A stretch of 64,000 bases of DNA, taken from assembly GCA_947588825.1 (NCBI GenBank), contig CANPZU010000009.1:40-64039 (forward strand). The letters are read 5' to 3'. Every line of letters begins with the position of its first letter. Position 1 is the stretch's first letter. Position numbers and translations under genes: made by a program. The notes below the pieces were generated by a model, which searched no databases, had not been told where the DNA came from, and saw only the letters and a program-made list of their open reading frames with translations. This document shows positions 5,560 through 39,844 of this stretch, in pieces. Origin of the DNA: an uncultured Clostridia bacterium. GTDB lineage: Bacteria; Bacillota; Clostridia; Oscillospirales; CAG-272.

Positions 5560-7551
5560 ATGGATAATTACACTAAATATATCGGACAAACCCTTGAAAA
5601 CAGGTACAATATAAAAAGCCTTATAGGAAACGGCGGAATGGCGCATGTCTTTCTTGCCGAAGACACCGTCATGAACAGACAGGTGGCAATAAAGGTGTTA
5701 AAGGACAACATTTCCTCCGACGCGCTTGCCGTCAAGCGTTTTATCAATGAAACAAAAGCAATATCTATGTTAAAGCACAGTAATATTGTCGGAGTTTACG
5801 ATATTTCGGTTGATTCGGAGCCCAAATACATTGCGATGGAGTATGTCAAAGGCGTTACGCTTATGGCATATATGGAGGAAAAGGGGATACTGCCCTTTGA
5901 CGAAACGGAAAAATATGTTTTGCAGATACTCGCGGCGCTCTCTCACGCGCATTCCAAGGGAATCATTCACAGAGATATCAAGCCTCAGAACATCATTATC
6001 GACTCCAATGGAAATGTGAAAGTAGCCGATTTCGGTATAGCCAAACTACCGGGCAACGAGACTATATCTCTTGCGGATAAAGCAATCGGTACCGTTAACT
6101 ACATCAATCCCGAGCAGGCGTGCGGTAAGGCGATCGACGCCAGAAGCGACATATACTCTCTCGGGATCATGATGTACGAAATGGTGACCGGCAAGCTGCC
6201 CTTTGTCGCGGACACACCGGTTGCAACGGCGTATATGCAGATACACGATAAGCCGCAAAAGCCTTCGTCAATTAATCCCAAAGTTGCAAAGGGACTTGAA
6301 CAGATAATTCTCAAGGCAATGAAAAAGAATCCCGAAAACCGATTCCAAACCGCGGGAGAGATGTTTTCATGCCTTAAACGCGTAAAGGACAACCCTGACG
6401 TCACATTTGATTTTATCTTTGACGAGGATGCCGAAACAACGCCGTTTGCCGACGCTCTTCCAAACGAGATATCGGGGGACATTGTTATCAAGATAAGCGA
6501 CGCGCCTTCTCATAATAAGGAAGAGGATGTCGTTACTGTCCGTCCCGAGATAAAGGTAAGCAAGGTCCGAAAATCAAATGCTCCCGAAAAGACGGATGGT
6601 TTTTGGAAAAAGATAAAAGAAAAAAGAGAGGAAAAGAAAAAGAATATCGAGGTCGAGGAGATCGTCGTTAATAAAAAATCAAGCGTTTCATTACTCGGGA
6701 TAATACTCGGCATCATGTCGGCCGTGGCGTGTGTGTGTATTGTCGTACTGTTCTATGTCTTTAACAATTACATTGTAGAGTCCATTAGCTCAAACGGCTC
6801 GCAGACCATAGTCGTCGGTGATTTCAAATATATGAGCTTTTCCGAGGAATTTCAAAGAAGGCTTGAAGACGAGGGATATGAAATTAGCGTCGAATGGGTC
6901 TCGAGCAGCGAATATCTCGCCAATACGATTATTTCACAATATCCCGAGGCAAACGAGCAAAGAATGATAATTCCCGGTGAACGCAAATGCAGTTTGGAAC
7001 TTGTTGTATGCCGGGGCGAGGATATGGTGAGTCTTGGCAACTATGTCGGAATGGACTATAGAGAGGCGGTGATATCCATGAACGCACTCGGACTTAAAAC
7101 AAATGTGGTGCAGCAGAACAGTCCGGCTATCGCGGAAGGATGCATTATTTCTACGTATCCCGAGGCGGGATCTCTTATTACCTCGGATACCCTTGTCACT
7201 GTCTATGTCAGCATAGGGTCCGGCAGTGAATATGTGAGCGTACCTAATTTTGTCAACATGAACAGCATAGAGCTTGATCTTGCGTTGATAAGATACGGAT
7301 TTAGGATCAAGAGCATCAGCTACGAATACTCTGAAACGGTCGAAGCGGGACGCGTCATATCTCAAAGCATACTGCAAGGTACTAAAGTGCCATCCGGCGT
7401 TACGGAAATCAGCTTTGTGGTGAGCCTTGGAAGCGAATTTGACTTTTTTGACTCAACAGAGAACTATAACGGAAATATTCAAACTCCTTCGACCGGCAAT
7501 GCCGACAGCGAATTTGAAAGGGATCCTGACAATTCGGATTACGAGGGTTAG
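5560..7551 (+). CDS. prkC: Ser/Thr protein kinase with PASTA repeats (PrkC/Stk1)
   Basis: Hanks kinase motifs are present (GNGGMAHV, AIK, HRDIKPQN, DFGIA, the PEQ region). One TM segment follows, then C-terminal repeats of PASTA type. Confidence 0.95.
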   Translation: MDNYTKYIGQTLENRYNIKSLIGNGGMAHVFLAEDTVMNRQVAIKVLKDNISSDALAVKRFINETKAISMLKHSNIVGVYDISVDSEPKYIAMEYVKGVTLMAYMEEKGILPFDETEKYVLQILAALSHAHSKGIIHRDIKPQNIIIDSNGNVKVADFGIAKLPGNETISLADKAIGTVNYINPEQACGKAIDARSDIYSLGIMMYEMVTGKLPFVADTPVATAYMQIHDKPQKPSSINPKVAKGLEQIILKAMKKNPENRFQTAGEMFSCLKRVKDNPDVTFDFIFDEDAETTPFADALPNEISGDIVIKISDAPSHNKEEDVVTVRPEIKVSKVRKSNAPEKTDGFWKKIKEKREEKKKNIEVEEIVVNKKSSVSLLGIILGIMSAVACVCIVVLFYVFNNYIVESISSNGSQTIVVGDFKYMSFSEEFQRRLEDEGYEISVEWVSSSEYLANTIISQYPEANEQRMIIPGERKCSLELVVCRGEDMVSLGNYVGMDYREAVISMNALGLKTNVVQQNSPAIAEGCIISTYPEAGSLITSDTLVTVYVSIGSGSEYVSVPNFVNMNSIELDLALIRYGFRIKSISYEYSETVEAGRVISQSILQGTKVPSGVTEISFVVSLGSEFDFFDSTENYNGNIQTPSTGNADSEFERDPDNSDYEG

Positions 7552-30395: not shown

Positions 30396-30472
30396 TGGTG
30401 GGGACAGTTGGGATCGAACCAATGACCTCATGCATGTCAAGCATGCGCTCTAACCAGCTGAGCTATGCCCCC
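30396..30472 (-). tRNA. tRNA-Val (anticodon GAC), CCA encoded
   Basis: 77-nt cloverleaf folded by hand. Acceptor GGGGGCA/TGTCCCC, D arm GCTC-AGCTGGTTA-GAGC, anticodon arm CATGC-TTGACAT-GCATG and a T arm with GGTTCGATCC are present, with a terminal ACCA. Confidence 0.92.
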
Positions 30473-34557: not shown

Positions 34558-34574
34558 ATCATTTAAATCATAAC

Positions 34575-35100
34575 CACCCGTCAAACGGGTGGTTTGCACA
34601 AGGGCTAAAAGCCCAAAACTACCGGCCAGCGGCTCAAGCCGCTGGCTTTCGTATACTCAAGCCTATTGCCTTTGCCGCCTTTGCCGCCCATAAATGGGCT
34701 TCGTATTACCTGCCACACTTAAAAGGGTCTTCGTACTCCTTAACATTCAACTTGTCAAGGGCAATATCATTTTTCTCTTGTTCTTCGATGTATTTCTTTA
34801 GTGTCGGTTCCCGTACTTATATTTCAGATTTGCATGTTTGTCATTTGTCAAACATCATCAGTGCACTTTTCCCTTTTAAATATCCCATAAAACTTGACAC
34901 GCTCGTTTTTGGTGGTATACTTAACAGTAGGTGCACATGATCAGGCGTCATAGTCCCTCAAGTATCTCCACGCCTTTATATTTGCATAGAGTTCGGATGC
35001 AAGAAAAGCAATAAAAGAGTTTTGTATGGAAAACAATGTTGCCTGTTTTCTTATGTCAGATGCCTGTGGTAGTGTAGTAATAGCAAAACCTTTATATATT
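34575..35100 (-). mobile_element. Decayed IS200/IS605-family element (tnpA remnant plus hairpin-rich end)
   Basis: The tnpA pseudogene is listed below. Downstream of it on the minus strand lie hairpins GCCAGCGGC-ttga-GCCGCTGGC, GGGCT-ttt-AGCCC and CCACCCG-tttga-CGGGTGG, plus a 9-nt tandem GGCGGCAAA x2. Confidence 0.65.
34706..35056 (-). pseudogene. IS200/IS605 Y1 transposase (TnpA) pseudogene
   Basis: Minus-strand frames read NIVFHTKLFY, IRTLCKYKGVEILEG, PDHVHLLLSIPPKTSVSSFMGYLKGKSALMMFDK, HANLKYKYGNRH and TLKKYIEEQEKNDIALDKLNVKEYEDPF. They are separated by frameshifts, a 7-nt tandem duplication (34837-34850) and loss of the catalytic-Tyr segment. Confidence 0.8.
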
Positions 35101-35123
35101 TAGAAATTTGAGGAGATTTTATT

Positions 35124-36224
35124 ATGAAACAAAAAATGATTGATTTTTTACTGAACAATGCGGGCCCTTCGATTGTTTTGCGAGTAAAAAAAGAAATATT
35201 AAGAGATATCACAAAAAAAGAAGAACAAGAACTGCAAAGTAAAATATCAGATGAAAAAATCATAAAACTTATAGCGGAAAAACAACAGGAAAACGGTTGG
35301 ATCGGCCGTGGTTTTCACGGTTCAAGCAAAAATGCGGGTCAATATGATAATCAGGAAACCGCTACAAAATACATGGGCGAAAAAGGTTTAAAAGGAACAG
35401 CGTTATTGGACGGTGCGATGAATGCCTTTATGACTACTAAATTGACCGACCTGTGCTATGAGACCAAGGGCAGATTATATAGTGAATTTGAAATACCTGC
35501 TTTCGGTCAAAACATGATAAGGTGTGCATGTATTGCAAGAGCGCATTATGATGATACTATTGATATAACACCTCAAATCGAGGTTGCATTAGAATCATTT
35601 AAACGAGTAACGGAAGTCGATTCAATACTTGATGTTTCTCGCCCGTCTAAGAAGTGCAGACTGTTTAACGACTACGAGAGATGGCCGTGCAGATATCATC
35701 TTGAAATATTAGCATTTACTAATTCGTGGAAAAATCGTGACAATATTAATATGCTCGCAGAATCGTTTAAAAAGTTAATGAGAACAGACAGACCGGAAAT
35801 AATGAACATGCCGGTGGCATGTTGGATAGGTCATGTTGTCGGACCGCTATGGTATTTATCGGAAGGATATTCTGTTTCTACAAATTTAATAAACCGCTGC
35901 ATTAACGATGGTACTCGTAGAGTAAATATGGAAAAAGTTGAATGGTTAACACGATGCGGCTTATACAATTACATTCCTCAGCTTAAAACGGAGGTTGATT
36001 ATATTCTTCAAAATATCAATAGTGACGGTATTTGCGAAATAGATGTTTATGAGGATGAATTTAAAGGATGGGGACCTTATGCGGGACTGCGTTTAGAATC
36101 CGATTGGAGGTCAAAAGTCTGCAAGGCTTGCGATATTACTTTTAGGGCATTATTAATACTACACTACTTAGAAACGCAAACACTCAGTAAGGATATTGGG
36201 CTGTTGCAGGAAGCGGAATATTAG
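35124..36224 (+). CDS. Uncharacterised ~360-aa protein, paralog A1 (possible alpha/alpha-repeat fold)
   Basis: 366 aa. GAGGAG lies 9 nt upstream. It is colinear with the 38264..39313 product, sharing blocks IDFLL.NA.PSI, Q.ENGW.G.GFHG, CIARAHYDD, ERWPC.YHLEILAF, LMRTDRPEIMN, VACW.GH.VGP and CDITFRALLI.HY. Confidence 0.75.
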   Translation: MKQKMIDFLLNNAGPSIVLRVKKEILRDITKKEEQELQSKISDEKIIKLIAEKQQENGWIGRGFHGSSKNAGQYDNQETATKYMGEKGLKGTALLDGAMNAFMTTKLTDLCYETKGRLYSEFEIPAFGQNMIRCACIARAHYDDTIDITPQIEVALESFKRVTEVDSILDVSRPSKKCRLFNDYERWPCRYHLEILAFTNSWKNRDNINMLAESFKKLMRTDRPEIMNMPVACWIGHVVGPLWYLSEGYSVSTNLINRCINDGTRRVNMEKVEWLTRCGLYNYIPQLKTEVDYILQNINSDGICEIDVYEDEFKGWGPYAGLRLESDWRSKVCKACDITFRALLILHYLETQTLSKDIGLLQEAEY

Positions 36225-36312
36225 ACCAAACCATTACAAACGAAAGACTTGCACACCGAGGATATTATGATATATCCAAAGCATACAAGTCTATGCACTT
36301 AATATGATTGAA

Positions 36313-36387
36313 CCGCCGTGTACGGCACCGTACGCACGGTGGCGTGAGAGGTCGGCTACTCAACTAATGAGCAGTCTCCTACCCGAT
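36313..36387 (+). mobile_element. Possible group II intron 3'-terminal fragment (domain V/VI-like)
   Basis: CCGCCGTG-TACG-GCAC-CGTA-(CG bulge)-CACGGTGG followed by GAGAGG...CTCCTA-CCCGAT. By eye this parallels the Ll.LtrB D5/D6 layout GAGCCGTATAC...GTACGTACGGTTC / GAGGG...CCTCCCTAC. Confidence 0.35.
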
Positions 36388-36475
36388 TTCACTTTTCACT
36401 CATCATTAAAAACATACTGCCAATTTTTTGGAAGTAATAATGAAAAGCTAAAAAGTTGTAAGTTTTAGATTGAGA

Positions 36476-37369
36476 TTAAACTCTGCAAAATTCATTTATC
36501 TCTTTCAGCATCATTTCCTTTAGCTCCGGTGGGATATTGAACTGATTCAAAAAAGCCGCCTCGTCAAAGGGAGTGCCGGTACCACCGCATATTGCAAAAA
36601 TCCATGAAAGATATTCACTTGCCATTTCTTCACGGATTTTCTTTATAATGAAATAATCTGTCAGGATTACAAGGTTCTCCGACAAATCATGTGTACCGTC
36701 GTCCATGCTGATCATCCGATTCAGAAGAACGTCGGTAAATTGATGTGTGTACTCGTGCAACAACTGAAAAAAGGTCGGCTCAACTTCTCGTTCATTTTGA
36801 GGCACCGGTACGGCGGCAACAAAATCATCCTGTGAATGTAATCCGCGCCCGTTGCAGGTTATGCTAAACGAAAGATATGCGACTGCTCTGTTTTTTTGAT
36901 AGTGTGAGAACACGCAATCGCACGTTCTCAAGAGCGATTCAAGCTGCGCCTCACACTTCTTGCGTCTGTCATGCGTATTCCGATATTCCGACTCCCAATA
37001 GGAAAAATATATGAGAGACTCTTTTTCAAGGGCGGTTACAAACGGTTCGACAAAAAATTCTTTGTCCTCACGCGTGAAACCGGAATAATTCAAAAGCCGC
37101 TTTTTCATTTCTTCAAAACTTTCATCAGGTTGTGCAAGAGGTAGAAAATTCACGATTCCAAGGCGCTCAAAATGTTGATTGTAGTATTGCTGGATTTCAG
37201 CCGCGGTACACCTCAAATCGAATGAAAATTCGGAGGTTCTTCGATACTTTTCAAACTCGCATATGTATTTTTCAGAATACAGATTTGAAGCATTACACAC
37301 CTGCATATATGCCAACACGTGATAGATGAGATCAACGCATTTAGAGTATATAAAAACAATTTCCGCCAC
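36476..37369 (-). CDS. Hypothetical protein with a single HExxH motif (putative zincin-like metalloprotein)
   Basis: 297 aa. A GTG start has AAGGAGGTG 7 nt upstream. LLHEYTHQF is followed 22 residues after the second His by SEN. No signal peptide or TM segment is seen. Confidence 0.7.
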   Translation of the reverse strand: MAEIVFIYSKCVDLIYHVLAYMQVCNASNLYSEKYICEFEKYRRTSEFSFDLRCTAAEIQQYYNQHFERLGIVNFLPLAQPDESFEEMKKRLLNYSGFTREDKEFFVEPFVTALEKESLIYFSYWESEYRNTHDRRKKCEAQLESLLRTCDCVFSHYQKNRAVAYLSFSITCNGRGLHSQDDFVAAVPVPQNEREVEPTFFQLLHEYTHQFTDVLLNRMISMDDGTHDLSENLVILTDYFIIKKIREEMASEYLSWIFAICGGTGTPFDEAAFLNQFNIPPELKEMMLKEINEFCRV

Positions 37370-37434
37370 AGTCGAACACCTCCTTTGCAGTACGAAAAAA
37401 TCTGTATTTTTCTTTGAAACTTTCCTTAGTCCTA

Positions 37435-38247
37435 TTACTCAATGATACATTCTCCTCGTTGATCATTCGGTTTTTCTCTATAATTTTCTTGCCTTGAACA
37501 AAACCGAAAGCGGAAGCATTTTCGCTTTTTGGCTTTGGTGCTTATATCGCCTTTTGCCTGCATTGTCGCATCATCAGTTTGCTCGACCATTTGCTCGATC
37601 ACAAATCCCGCCTTTGCCAAAGCGTTGACGTAGGTGGATATTTTGCGGTTACACAGTAGAATCTCACTGCCGTCTATCGGTATTCTGAAATATGACTCGT
37701 CAAAATAGCTTTTGTTCATCACAAGGGGATCATTTTCATAGACATTTTTTCTGTTTTCACATGACCAAGCAATACAGTAATTTAAGGTATGATGCCAGCT
37801 GAAAATGAAAATACCGTCCTTTTTCAGGTATGAGGCTATTTTCTGAAATGTTCCGTCCAAATCTGTTGTCCAACCAATCCCGTAAATCGAATACACAAAG
37901 TCAAAATAGTCTTTCGGGATGTCAATCTCGGCTTCCATCGGAGAGCAGATGAGATTTGCATGATACCCGTTTTCCCTCAAATACCGCTCGGCATTTTCAA
38001 GCTGTTTATGAGATATATCCACACCCCATAATTCAAGGGCGTTTCTGTCCGCAAGATACTTTAGAGAATGCCCGCTACCAAAGCATATTTCAAGAATTTT
38101 CTTGCCCGCAACAGCTTCAAACAGGTGTAGTTCATCTTCTGTTACAAAGTGTACTCCGTAATCAGGCAGCGCCGTAGCGCCCGACCATAAGTCCGCGTAT
38201 GTATCCCAATAATGCTTGTTTGTTTTCAATATTTCATCTTGATTCAT
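37435..38247 (-). CDS. Class I SAM-dependent methyltransferase
   Basis: Motif I ILEICFGSGHS, an acidic post-I GVDIS and motif II-like FDFVYS are present. AAAGGAG SD upstream. The start is 16 nt after the stop of the upstream gene. Confidence 0.88.
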   Translation of the reverse strand: MNQDEILKTNKHYWDTYADLWSGATALPDYGVHFVTEDELHLFEAVAGKKILEICFGSGHSLKYLADRNALELWGVDISHKQLENAERYLRENGYHANLICSPMEAEIDIPKDYFDFVYSIYGIGWTTDLDGTFQKIASYLKKDGIFIFSWHHTLNYCIAWSCENRKNVYENDPLVMNKSYFDESYFRIPIDGSEILLCNRKISTYVNALAKAGFVIEQMVEQTDDATMQAKGDISTKAKKRKCFRFRFCSRQENYREKPNDQRGECIIE

Positions 38248-38263
38248 TTGCCCTCTGCTCCTT

Positions 38264-39313
38264 TTAAATCGATTGTTTCGAATAATGCATAATCAGCAAA
38301 GCTCGAAACGTTATATCGCAAGCTCTACGTATTTTGGATTTCCAATCAGTTTCAAGCTGCAGCCCGAAATACGGGCTCCACCCTCTAAATTCTTTTTCAT
38401 TGACAGCTAATCTACATATACCATCTTGACCGATATTGTTAAGTACATATTCAACTTCTTCTTTGAGCTTCGGAATATGGTTGTATAAACCACATCGAAC
38501 CATCCATTCTACTTTATCCAGTCTTACAATGTGGACATCATCTGTATCCGCCGAAATAGAAAAACCTTCGGGATAATACATTGCAGGACCAACCGGGTGT
38601 CCCAACCAGCAGGCAACACGGGTATTCATGATTTCGGGGCGGTCTGTTCGCATTAACCGTTTGAATGATTCGCCCAGCATTGTAATATTGTCTTCACTTT
38701 TCCATGAGTCGGTAAAAGCTAATATTTCGAGATGATAATGGCACGGCCATCTTTCGTTTTCATTAAACAGTCTGAAATTTTTTGCCGGACGAGAAACGTC
38801 AAATATAGAATCAACTTCCGTTACTCGTCTGAATGATTCAAGCGCAATGCCTATCTGCGGTTCAATATTGATAACATCATCATAATGCGCCCTCGCAATA
38901 CAAGCAGAACGAGTGATATTCGGACCGTAAGCAGGAACATTAAATTCGCTGTATATTTTTCCTTTGGCTTCATAACATAAATCAGCAGGCTTCATAGCTG
39001 CAAAGGCGTCCATTGCTCTATTCAAAACGGGCGTATCTTTAAATACCAATTTTTCGCCCAAATATTTCGTGCCGACTTCTTGGTTTTCAAACGGTCCCGC
39101 GTTTTTGTTCGGACCGTGAAATCCGTTTCCGAGCCATCCGTTTTCCTTCTGGCAGGCGATAATCAGCTGAATAACAGGCTCCGCTAAAATCTGCTCTTGC
39201 AACTGCTGTTTTTCTTCGAGCGGAACTTCTTCATTTAGAACCTCGCTTCTCACTCGGTATCTTATGGACGGATTCGCATTACTCAGTAAAAAATCAATCA
39301 TTTTCTCTTTCAT
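38264..39313 (-). CDS. Uncharacterised ~350-aa protein, paralog A2 (first gene of a three-gene operon)
   Basis: It shares the same conserved blocks as 35124..36224. The start is MKEKMIDFLL, with AAGGAG 10 nt upstream. The track start at 39349 lacks an SD. Confidence 0.75.
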   Translation of the reverse strand: MKEKMIDFLLSNANPSIRYRVRSEVLNEEVPLEEKQQLQEQILAEPVIQLIIACQKENGWLGNGFHGPNKNAGPFENQEVGTKYLGEKLVFKDTPVLNRAMDAFAAMKPADLCYEAKGKIYSEFNVPAYGPNITRSACIARAHYDDVINIEPQIGIALESFRRVTEVDSIFDVSRPAKNFRLFNENERWPCHYHLEILAFTDSWKSEDNITMLGESFKRLMRTDRPEIMNTRVACWLGHPVGPAMYYPEGFSISADTDDVHIVRLDKVEWMVRCGLYNHIPKLKEEVEYVLNNIGQDGICRLAVNEKEFRGWSPYFGLQLETDWKSKIRRACDITFRALLIMHYSKQSI

Positions 39314-39411
39314 ACACTTATAACTCCTTTTTTTGAAAAAATGCGTCATTTTTTTGACAAACTTTCATATATTACATTATCCGAAAAAATTCGTCAATAG
39401 TCGACAGCACT

Positions 39412-39440
39412 ATTATATTCAATTTTTGAGTAAATGTCAA
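39412..39440 (-). promoter_or_regulatory. Consensus sigma-A promoter of the A2-methyltransferase-HExxH operon
   Basis: Minus strand TTGACA (39435-39440), a 17-nt spacer, then TATAAT (39412-39417). Confidence 0.7.
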
Positions 39441-39458
39441 TACTCAATTTTTGAATAT
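39415..39458. promoter_or_regulatory. 44-bp composite palindrome (candidate XRE operator)
   Basis: ATATTC-AATTTTT-GAGTA-aatgtcaa-TACTC-AATTTTT-GAATAT. The outer and inner arms are inverted repeats. It covers the -35, spacer and -10 of the minus-strand promoter. Confidence 0.55.
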
Positions 39459-39551
39459 AGTATAATTTTTTAAGTTTAGTTGAAAATGCGGCTTTGAATC
39501 GTTCTAATTGTATTTACTTTCGGAATTTTTTCATAAGTTTAGGAGAATATT

Positions 39552-39773
39552 ATGGATTACAGAGAAAGAATCAGAGAAGTGCGGGAAGACAGGGATTTTA
39601 CCCAAGCACAAATCGGTAAGCTACTCAACAAATCTCAGCAAGGTTATAACCATATAGAAGCCGGTCGCGCAGAACTGAAAATTGAAGATTTGATACGGCT
39701 TTGTGAATTTTACAATCTTTCTTCGGATTATTTAATTGGTTTGACTGATAAGCCGAAATCATTTAAATGTTGA
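39552..39773 (+). CDS. XRE-family helix-turn-helix transcriptional regulator
   Basis: 73 aa. An HTH_3 core FTQAQIGKLLNKSQQGYNHIEAGR and a typical tail DYLIGLTDKP are present. TAGGAGAA SD upstream. Confidence 0.88.
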   Translation: MDYRERIREVREDRDFTQAQIGKLLNKSQQGYNHIEAGRAELKIEDLIRLCEFYNLSSDYLIGLTDKPKSFKC

Positions 39774-39806
39774 GATAATTGCAAAAAAACAACCCACGGC
39801 ATCGCC

Positions 39807-39844
39807 AAAAATCGGCAAGCGCGCTTTGTGCTTGCCGATTTTTA
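39807..39844. terminator. Bidirectional terminator between the XRE gene and rpiB
   Basis: AAAAATCGGCAAGC-gcgctttgt-GCTTGCCGATTTTT. Confidence 0.8.

Follow-up and report, generated by a model that had tools for sequence, protein, structure and literature searches.

Do genes that stand together in a tight operon in one genome also work together? The question is raised by an islet of about 5 kb in a 64,000-nt stretch of DNA from an uncultured Clostridia bacterium (contig CANPZU010000009.1), and we refer to that whole stretch as the window. The islet (window 34558-39806) is low in GC, lies between a FucO-like gene and rpiB, and holds five open reading frames (ORFs): two members, A1 and A2, of a protein family that we call family A, a class I S-adenosylmethionine (SAM)-dependent methyltransferase (MT), a protein with an HExxH motif and a small XRE-type regulator. 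A first reading of this DNA, made from its letters alone (the sequence-only reading), had proposed that A2, the MT and the HExxH protein form a functional three-gene module. We consider it fairly probable that the islet is a species-specific accessory assembly, put together from three or more pieces acquired separately, and no conserved system of several genes, and that these pieces carry independent cargo under an XRE-type switch.

Comparison with contigs from other genomes, which bear labels such as L001, L024 and L171, divides the islet into gene-sized pieces, each with its own outside relative. Piece 1 (window 35107-36179) corresponds to A1 (35124-36224, plus strand; 366 aa) and is 88.6% identical at the nucleotide level to L024, with nothing else common to both; the L024 copy (5984-7056) has 43% GC in flanks of 61% GC, belongs to an unrelated Clostridia metagenome-assembled genome, and reads clearly as a single-gene lateral transfer. 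Piece 2 (36487-37396) corresponds to the gene for the HExxH protein (36476-37369, minus strand; 297 aa, GTG start) and is 89.4% identical at the nucleotide level to L001, where the homologue (87% identical) sits between NUDIX and DUF1349 genes. Piece 3 (37470-39768, minus strand) is the XRE/A2/MT block shared with L171 and L172 [79-86% nucleotide identity to L171 by blastn; 93% and 88% amino acid identity for XRE and the MT], and in L171 it occurs in a different genomic context, without the HExxH gene or A1. Since the pieces resemble three different foreign contexts at 79-89% nucleotide identity, and do so over gene-sized stretches only, the islet is a mosaic; the comparisons show three pieces that circulate independently, in a three-gene arrangement that is specific to this lineage. 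All same-species contigs have the identical gene arrangement, which indicates that the mosaic is fixed in the window species. Piece 1 would then be a single A1 gene beside debris of an IS200 insertion sequence, piece 2 a single HExxH gene inserted just downstream of the MT in the window species, and piece 3 a small repressor-controlled cassette in which XRE diverges from A2-MT.

The composition of the islet had been judged by eye to be more AT-rich than its flanks, and the GC content at third codon positions (GC3) bears this out: A1 (0.332) and A2 (0.381) have the lowest two values among the 54 window ORFs (median 0.502, standard deviation 0.043), and the MT (0.435) and the HExxH gene (0.443) fall in the low tail. 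All five ORFs are present in the ORF list of the window at the coordinates first assigned to them, and the islet proteins have no hydrophobic stretch of transmembrane grade, as had been noted; the cargo would be pictured as independent soluble cytoplasmic proteins. Against their nearest relatives, the islet genes show ratios of nonsynonymous to synonymous substitution (dN/dS) of 0.07-0.24, indicating purifying selection on all five. These low ratios mean that the genes are real, and judged by them the genes are functional now or were so until recently.

The neighbourhoods of the homologues bear directly on the proposed module. For family A we used the best 80 of 143 matches in species-representative genomes of other species, with flanks of up to 6 kb. 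Homologues of the window MT, the HExxH protein and XRE lie near A in none of these 80 loci; seen from the other side, an A gene accompanies the HExxH gene in none of 74 loci, a weak MT match in one and an XRE gene in two, with no recurrent neighbour. Clustering of the ORFs that adjoin A yielded no conserved partner, the most recurrent being an AraC/GyrI-like regulator and an ABC ATPase (11 loci each), and the neighbourhoods that we inspected by hand all differ from one another. A class I MT does stand next to A in 3 of the 80 loci, and it belongs to another clade with 22% identity to the window MT. The only sub-block that recurs is XRE-A2-MT, in one other lineage, that of L171 and L172. The test of synteny, which the sequence-only reading had itself named as able to refute the three-gene module, thus went against that module from both sides.

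Piece 3 would supply the switch. The XRE gene (39552-39773, plus strand) encodes a 73-aa helix-turn-helix (HTH) protein that we presume to be a repressor [Pfam HTH_3, E = 1.8e-13; the best NCBIfam match, RstR, is below its cut-off], with a dN/dS of 0.07 against the L171 copy. Divergent from it, as originally described, is a perfect promoter inside a palindrome. This operon promoter (39412-39440, minus strand; TTGACA-17-TATAAT) is the sole 12/12 match to the sigma-70 consensus in the region, is kept in L171 but for one base of the -35 hexamer, and is enclosed by a 22-nt inverted repeat (39411-39432 and 39441-39462), the probable XRE operator. A candidate promoter for XRE itself (39434-39461, plus strand; ATGTCA-16-TATAGT) shares the -35 core with the operon promoter. 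Between the window and L171, the XRE-A intergenic control region is 93% identical, and its core of ~65 nt, made up of the inverted repeat and the promoter, differs at 1 base; that the core is nearly invariant despite synonymous distances (dS) of 0.45-0.61 in the flanking genes indicates that the regulatory element is under selection. In the mechanism that we propose, an XRE dimer would bind the inverted repeat, which holds the -10 boxes and the shared -35 core of the back-to-back promoters, and the bound dimer would hold both the operon and the XRE gene itself in repression until some cue lifts it.

The first gene of the operon is A2 (38264-39313, minus strand; 349 aa), whose mechanical ORF reaches 39349, the start at 39313 being favoured by homologues and by the Shine-Dalgarno (SD) site. 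The MT and the HExxH gene follow after gaps of 16 nt and 65 nt, and an AGGAG-type ribosome-binding site lies 9-10 nt upstream of each of the three genes; gaps and SD sites agree with the first description. In the window species the HExxH gene came to lie immediately downstream of the MT, so that piece 3's strong promoter probably drives the joint transcription of all three genes. The operon's predicted 5' leader also contains a 14-nt direct repeat, GAAAAAAT(G/T)CGTCA, at 39335-39348 and 39383-39396; most of it is conserved in L171, and it may serve as a second operator or a leader element. In its 73-aa HTH_3 protein, its strong divergent promoter within an inverted repeat and its conserved control region, the islet resembles the regions governed by Cro/CI-type repressors in prophage immunity, in the immunity of integrative and conjugative elements (ICEs) and in the control of restriction-modification; unlike those regions, it contains no phage or ICE genes, DNA methyltransferase, nuclease or ImmA-type (M78) protease, according to the ORF list and the Pfam scans.

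The MT (37435-38247, minus strand; 270 aa) is a class I SAM-dependent methyltransferase, as it had been called, with scores above the Pfam cut-offs for Methyltransf_25 (56.1 bits, cut-off 27) and Methyltransf_11 (55.0 bits, cut-off 21.2), and it belongs by Pfam with the UbiE-like enzymes of these families. It reaches no equivalog-level NCBIfam cut-off, and its matches are to small-molecule-type families, with none to a DNA-methyltransferase profile. The clade to which it belongs has a normal length of ~256 aa and is widespread in Clostridia [at least 1983 proteins at E <= 1e-20, many of them 70-88% identical]. In the window, a 1-nt deletion in an A-run at ~37,515 (minus strand, within 37478-37530) frameshifts the C-terminus, so that 33 aa of unrelated sequence take the place of the conserved KAKMLPxSVLFKARKL. 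The other frame still encodes the clade's conserved ending, KAKMLPLSVLFKARKL*, undamaged up to its original stop at 37480-37478, and the 65-nt gap to the HExxH gene is a by-product of this shift. What the protein loses in this way is the C-terminal strand that its clade conserves and, with it, the intact fold. The identical frameshift allele is present in four same-species contigs, which leaves two explanations, a frameshift that became fixed recently or a systematic error at the homopolymer; in our mechanism the MT would be a common small-molecule-type methyltransferase that was crippled by a recent frameshift.

In L171 and L172, it is the A-like gene that has become a pseudogene: the conserved WLGNG has dropped out in frame, and the reading frame shifts near residue 210. 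A different gene is thus broken in each lineage with XRE-A-MT, namely A in L171/L172 and the MT in the window species. The middle part of this broken gene (L171 3948-5014; L172 354-1390) resembles another A sublineage (L092_3-like), a hint that paralogues have recombined. Homologues of the window MT mostly stand alone; those with 73-85% identity to it lie between lysS and genes for M16 peptidases, near dut/mreB, among BlaR/glyoxalase/TetR/MATE genes or among DUF3795/ABC genes.

Could XRE-A2-MT nevertheless be a pathway for the modification or detoxification of a small molecule, to which the HExxH protein was recruited later? A, as a toroid cyclase, hydrolase or transferase, and the MT would then act in sequence on one substrate, the zincin would add a hydrolytic step, and XRE would sense or relay the inducer. 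We regard this as unlikely, though less so than the other alternatives. The occurrence of the block in two unrelated contexts, at 79-86% nucleotide identity and with so similar a control region, speaks for it, as do the operon layout with its short gaps, SD sites and consensus promoter, the low dN/dS of all the genes, and the class I MT beside A in three loci, though of a different clade. However, the window-type MT accompanies none of the 80 A genes, its close homologues live alone in unrelated contexts, and the HExxH gene is never found with A in its own 74 loci. Moreover, the breakage of a different partner in each of two lineages would be unexpected if the enzymes were interdependent.

Several points also weigh against the patchwork of independent cargo that we prefer. 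The comparison sets are limited, both by the choice of the best A loci and the length of the flanks and by the many short metagenome contigs, flanks of at least 1.5 kb on both sides being present in 55 of the 80 A loci and 28 of 73 HExxH loci. The XRE-A2-MT block is seen once more elsewhere, and its control region is unusually well kept there, so that A2 and the MT may have worked together while the cassette was intact. The tight spacing, the SD sites and the single consensus promoter suggest that the three proteins are probably co-produced, and a joint function specific to this lineage is possible. Our statements on the functions of A and the HExxH protein, which are predictions from models, rest on weak fold matches (TM-score < 0.4) and on patterns of conservation. 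Finally, the genes that adjoin the homologues elsewhere (GyrI-like/AraC, NUDIX, GNAT, glyoxalase, TetR/MATE, ABC, BlaR/BlaI and DUF3795 genes) suggest loosely that the cargo has house-cleaning or xenobiotic-response roles as single genes shuffled among the variable regions of gut Clostridia, and this theme is an impression from the neighbourhoods.

What kind of protein, then, is A? A1 and A2 can be aligned over their full length (62% identity, 77% similarity, E = 1e-170) and contain the shared blocks listed in the sequence-only reading, which had put their identity at half to two-thirds. A duplication in situ is rejected, as each copy is closer to genes of other species (89% identity for A1, 79% for A2) than to the other copy; A1 and A2 are, by these distances, separate sublineages of the family. 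Both belong to its canonical subfamily, which keeps at least 53% identity across 80 species, and their dN/dS values are 0.09 (A1 against the L024 copy) and 0.13 (A2 against the L022 copy). Searches of Pfam, NCBIfam, PADLOC, PHROGs and PDB sequences with single sequences and profiles returned no match for either protein (PDB gave noise only), and the family was rightly called unrecognised. In Pfam scans, divergent members (first 10, then 54) gave no link to any named family, one of the 54 matching SQHop_cyclase_N at E = 0.18, and a full-text literature search found nothing on such a family. The close homologues number at least 494, are all labelled 'hypothetical', and come from Lachnospiraceae, Oscillospiraceae and other Clostridia; an exhaustive profile search of 1.84 billion representatives gave 415 clusters at 50% identity. 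Judged from these searches, A is a small family restricted to Clostridia.

The AlphaFold2 (AF2) model of A2 (pLDDT 87.7, pTM 0.90) has ~13 helices, and its top Foldseek matches, in the PDB as in BFVD, are nearly all alpha/alpha toroids, among them the thioester domains of alpha2-macroglobulin and C3, GH76, GH105, the LanC-like GCR2 (3t33) and GGTase/FTase beta subunits. The PDB matches are weak [best E = 0.036, TM-score 0.34-0.39, root-mean-square deviation (rmsd) ~9-11 Å], with none at E <= 0.001 in the PDB or BFVD, and BFVD adds nothing. The toroid fold that had been guessed from the motif spacing therefore looks reasonable in the model, whereas the matches do not support membership of any known toroid family. 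What likens A to the toroids is its helical model (~13 helices, against the ~12 paired helices of a toroid barrel), these weak fold matches and one or two Q-x-x-(D/E)-G-W motifs like those of the prenyltransferase/squalene-cyclase repeat; unlike them it has no sequence match to a Pfam, NCBIfam or PDB family, and its ~350 aa make up one barrel, to which neither a second domain nor a partner subunit is added. The prenyltransferase and terpene cyclase repeats (PF00432, PF13243, PF13249) match neither A1 nor A2 at E <= 1, and the resemblance to the six-hairpin glycosidases (GH76, GH105, GH88) is weak in fold and comes with no Pfam or PDB-sequence match, although A does have a conserved E321 and D333.

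Invariance across the A superfamily is confined to H66, L198 and W204; L9, I17, R20, L85, P190, E321, D333 and F336 are conserved in at least 90% of members, and no Cys column reaches 90%. The lack of a conserved Cys argues against a zinc site of the LanC or prenyltransferase type, and the cysteines among the zinc ligands of LanC (Cys/Cys/His) and of protein prenyltransferase beta subunits (Asp/Cys/His) are not conserved in A. The conserved H66, R20, W204, E321 and D333 suggest the pocket of an enzyme or a ligand-binding protein rather than a zinc-thiolate prenyltransferase or LanC site, and A would accordingly be pictured as an enzyme or a small-ligand-binding toroid, with a pocket of the hydrolase or isomerase type. 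A bolder proposal, to which we attach low confidence, is that A is a new kind of alpha/alpha-toroid enzyme confined to gut Clostridia, with a His/Glu/Asp/Arg/Trp pocket and an activity that would be new for this fold, which spreads as a single gene and diversifies in tandem, and that the intact XRE-A-MT cassette would be a mobile, repressor-gated unit of two enzymes that modifies a specific small molecule, for example a dietary, host or microbial xenobiotic.

What most often stands next to an A gene is a further member of the family. Arrays of two or three on the same strand occur in 20 of the 80 loci and combine a canonical copy, in variable order, with members of divergent subfamilies, of which three recur (~80-120 bits to the canonical profile); they are found in L029, L030, L078, L081, L083, L087, L091-L093, L095, L098, L099 and others, and unlinked second copies occur in several genomes (L032/L033, L056/L070, L042/L075, L077/L097). 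Such arrays, together with single-gene lateral transfer, the presence of more than one A copy in several species and one HExxH locus that adjoins SUKH/SMI1-type genes, would fit a family of diversifying binding or immunity-type proteins directed against a toxin, bacteriocin or antibiotic. We find this doubtful, since the conservation of canonical A over 80 species and its dN/dS of 0.09-0.13 are unlike those of fast-evolving immunity proteins, the His, Glu, Asp and Arg that are conserved point to catalysis, and no toxin gene recurs near the A loci. Immediately beside some arrays are two further unannotated proteins of ~330-345 aa with a Q-x-x-D-G-G-(W/M)-G motif (L092 911-1882, L098 848-1843, L054 3151-4182). 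These toroid-looking neighbours (L098_1, L054_3) have no detectable similarity to A and no Pfam family, and may represent other orphan toroid families.

The HExxH protein belongs to a second, still smaller family, with homologues in 64 clusters. It too had been called unrecognised, and it has no match in Pfam, NCBIfam, PADLOC, PHROGs or PDB sequences with single sequence or profile, apart from a spurious Med16; the profiles of named peptidase families (M1, M48, M78 ImmA/IrrE, SprT, DUF2268) give no match at E <= 1. The invariant positions of the family include H17, N26, G174-R175-G176, H205-E206-x-x-H209, T212-D213, H227 and E231, and the dN/dS against the nearest relative is 0.24. In the AF2 model (pLDDT 95), a three-stranded sheet is followed by the long helix that carries H205, E206 and H209 and by a next helix with H227 and E231, as in the HExxH...E arrangement of gluzincins, and this strand-strand-strand-helix-helix order corresponds, in the model, to a zincin core of the clan MA type. 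We therefore describe the protein as a putative zincin-like metallohydrolase, in which H205, E206 and H209 would act with E231 or H227. The Foldseek matches are local and weak, with none in the PDB at E <= 0.001: Wss1, catalytic domains of M1 aminopeptidases, anthrax lethal factor (LF), M61 and the alpha-ketoglutarate (alpha-KG) HExxH domain of ChlB all have E >= 0.2. The zincins among them (M1, Wss1/SprT, LF, M61) superpose at 4-5 Å rmsd over ~120-145 columns, and, unlike in these enzymes, a large N-terminal helical domain matches nothing. HExxH proteins are not always peptidases; alpha-KG HExxH enzymes work in pathways for ribosomally synthesised peptides that carry post-translational modifications (RiPPs) (PMC12636437). 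With these beta-hydroxylases (IPR026337; ChlBH, BpmH, PflC) the window protein shares its HExxH motif, a largely helical make-up and a weak fold match (8s5f); it differs from them in having no NCBIfam or Pfam match and no RiPP context, and the fold match itself is poor (E = 1.4, TM-score 0.26-0.29). At L005 5847-11719, one HExxH-family gene lies within a Tn916-like element that has a Mob_Pre relaxase, a tyrosine integrase and Xis, and this is direct evidence that the family travels on mobile elements.

An anti-phage defence system, which the sequence-only reading had named as a possibility, is highly improbable. The islet does lie in a variable region beside mobile-element debris, it has an XRE regulator, and PADLOC 2.0 returns matches of the MT to mad2 (E = 2.7e-19) and of XRE to capH and RmrA; these matches, however, span the generic methyltransferase and HTH domains only, while A and the HExxH protein have none. 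Pfam and NCBIfam scans of the islet found no domain of effector type, be it a nuclease, an NTPase, a TIR or another, the gene set is not conserved, the neighbourhoods are not defence islands, and in a scan of IMG/VR neither the A family nor the HExxH family is on viral contigs. Two related candidates were rejected: a restriction-modification system with a C protein, as neither a DNA-methyltransferase profile nor a nuclease domain was matched, and an ImmA/IrrE-type protease paired with XRE, as XRE is near the HExxH gene in only 2 of 74 loci and two genes stand between them in the window. A cryptic RiPP or lanthipeptide-like cluster, with A as a LanC-like cyclase beside the MT and an HExxH protease or alpha-KG hydroxylase, could appeal to GCR2 and the prenyltransferase beta subunits among the fold matches of A and to 8s5f, an enzyme of a type that acts in RiPP pathways (PMC12636437), among those of the HExxH protein, yet it is close to refuted, as the ORF list has at the locus no gene for a precursor peptide, a dehydratase, a radical SAM enzyme or a YcaO protein, the LanC zinc ligands are missing, neither LANC_like in Pfam nor an HExxH-hydroxylase in NCBIfam is matched, A and the HExxH gene never occur together in the 80 and 74 loci, and the fold matches have E > 0.3 and TM-scores < 0.35.

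As a system, then, the islet is a typical variable-region patchwork of little weight, and the tempting three-gene module is removed; a tight operon layout in a single genome is no evidence for a functional module. The first description of the locus was accurate, and it is its functional interpretation that mostly did not hold, for want of conserved synteny. What the islet offers, as ordinary accessory DNA, is two families that have so far gone unannotated. Family A, with ~415 clusters, is newly delineated here; it has no Pfam or NCBIfam model, and its confident structure model has no close PDB neighbour. The second is the small HExxH family, with its invariant HExxH...H...E signature. Both are reasonable candidates for Pfam entries, for structural genomics and for activity screens in gut Clostridia.

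The scars left in the islet are those of mobile elements. At its left edge (34709-34951, minus strand) lie two in-frame fragments, broken by stops, of an IS200/IS605-family Y1 transposase, with the minus-strand translations MTPDHVHLLLSIPPKTSVSSFMGYLKGKSALMMFDK* and ...KKYIEEQEKNDIALDKLNVKEYEDPFKCGR; the joined fragments match Pfam Y1_Tnp at E = 4.8e-11, and this TnpA is a truncated, stop-interrupted remnant. Beside it (34570-34700) are GC-rich hairpins (34625-34646 and 34686-34699), which we take to be probably the subterminal end of the IS200/IS605 element. Within the remnant, and directed toward A1, is a promoter-like site (34894-34921, plus strand; TTGACA-16-TATACT with an extended TG, 11/12), which is a consensus match only; it lies ~200 nt upstream of A1 and may drive that gene. 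At the junction of pieces 1 and 2, between A1 and the HExxH gene, a match to domains V/VI of a group II intron (36311-36387, plus strand; RF00029) covers model positions 1-77 of 77 with 33.5 bits and E = 4e-5, below the gathering score of 40. The ORF list contains neither an intron body nor a reverse transcriptase ORF, and the match is best read as an orphan scrap. It is overlapped by a 54-aa ORF (36304-36468, plus strand; MIEPPCTAPYARWRERSATQLMSSLLPD...), most likely a spurious reading of sequence derived from structured RNA.

The right edge of the islet shows nothing mobile. The low GC3, the IS200 remnant and the intron scrap support the earlier view of an accessory islet with transposon and intron scars; its description as flanked by mobile elements stands for the left edge alone, the intron scrap being internal. 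Low GC and GC3, the IS200 remnant, the intron scrap at a junction and the gene-sized mosaic homologies are also what liken this locus to islets built by serial insertion beside insertion sequences, and it differs from those in having no integrase, tRNA target or direct repeats. The gene-sized homologies and the Cass2/GyrI-like genes near A had made an integron-like cassette array a candidate, and it was rejected, as no integrase or attC-like repeats were found, the gene orientations differ, and no intergenic piece is repeated in the window.

Beyond XRE, a bidirectional terminator-type hairpin (39807-39843) separates that gene from rpiB, with an A-run, a 10-bp GC-rich stem and a T-run; it was read directly from the letters, the automated scan having overlooked it on account of its 9-nt loop. 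A near-identical hairpin, AAAAATCGGCAAGC...GCTTGCCGATTTT, stands beyond the MT in L171 (5804-5839), and the shared hairpin may be a cassette boundary or just a common terminator. On the opposite strand, the L171 hairpin abuts what appears to be a tRNA gene at its 3' end. In the other genomes, GyrI-like/Cass2-type genes are immediate neighbours of A in ~14 loci, and DUF3795 genes adjoin A in 3 loci and also adjoin a close homologue of the MT (L080 3729-4079; L180 1004-1360); this recurrence points to a loose, shared pool of variable-region genes. In the window itself, a tRNA gene (30399-30472, minus strand; Rfam RF00005, 62.8 bits) lies ~4 kb to the left of the islet and is separated from it by a P-type ATPase gene and the FucO-like gene.

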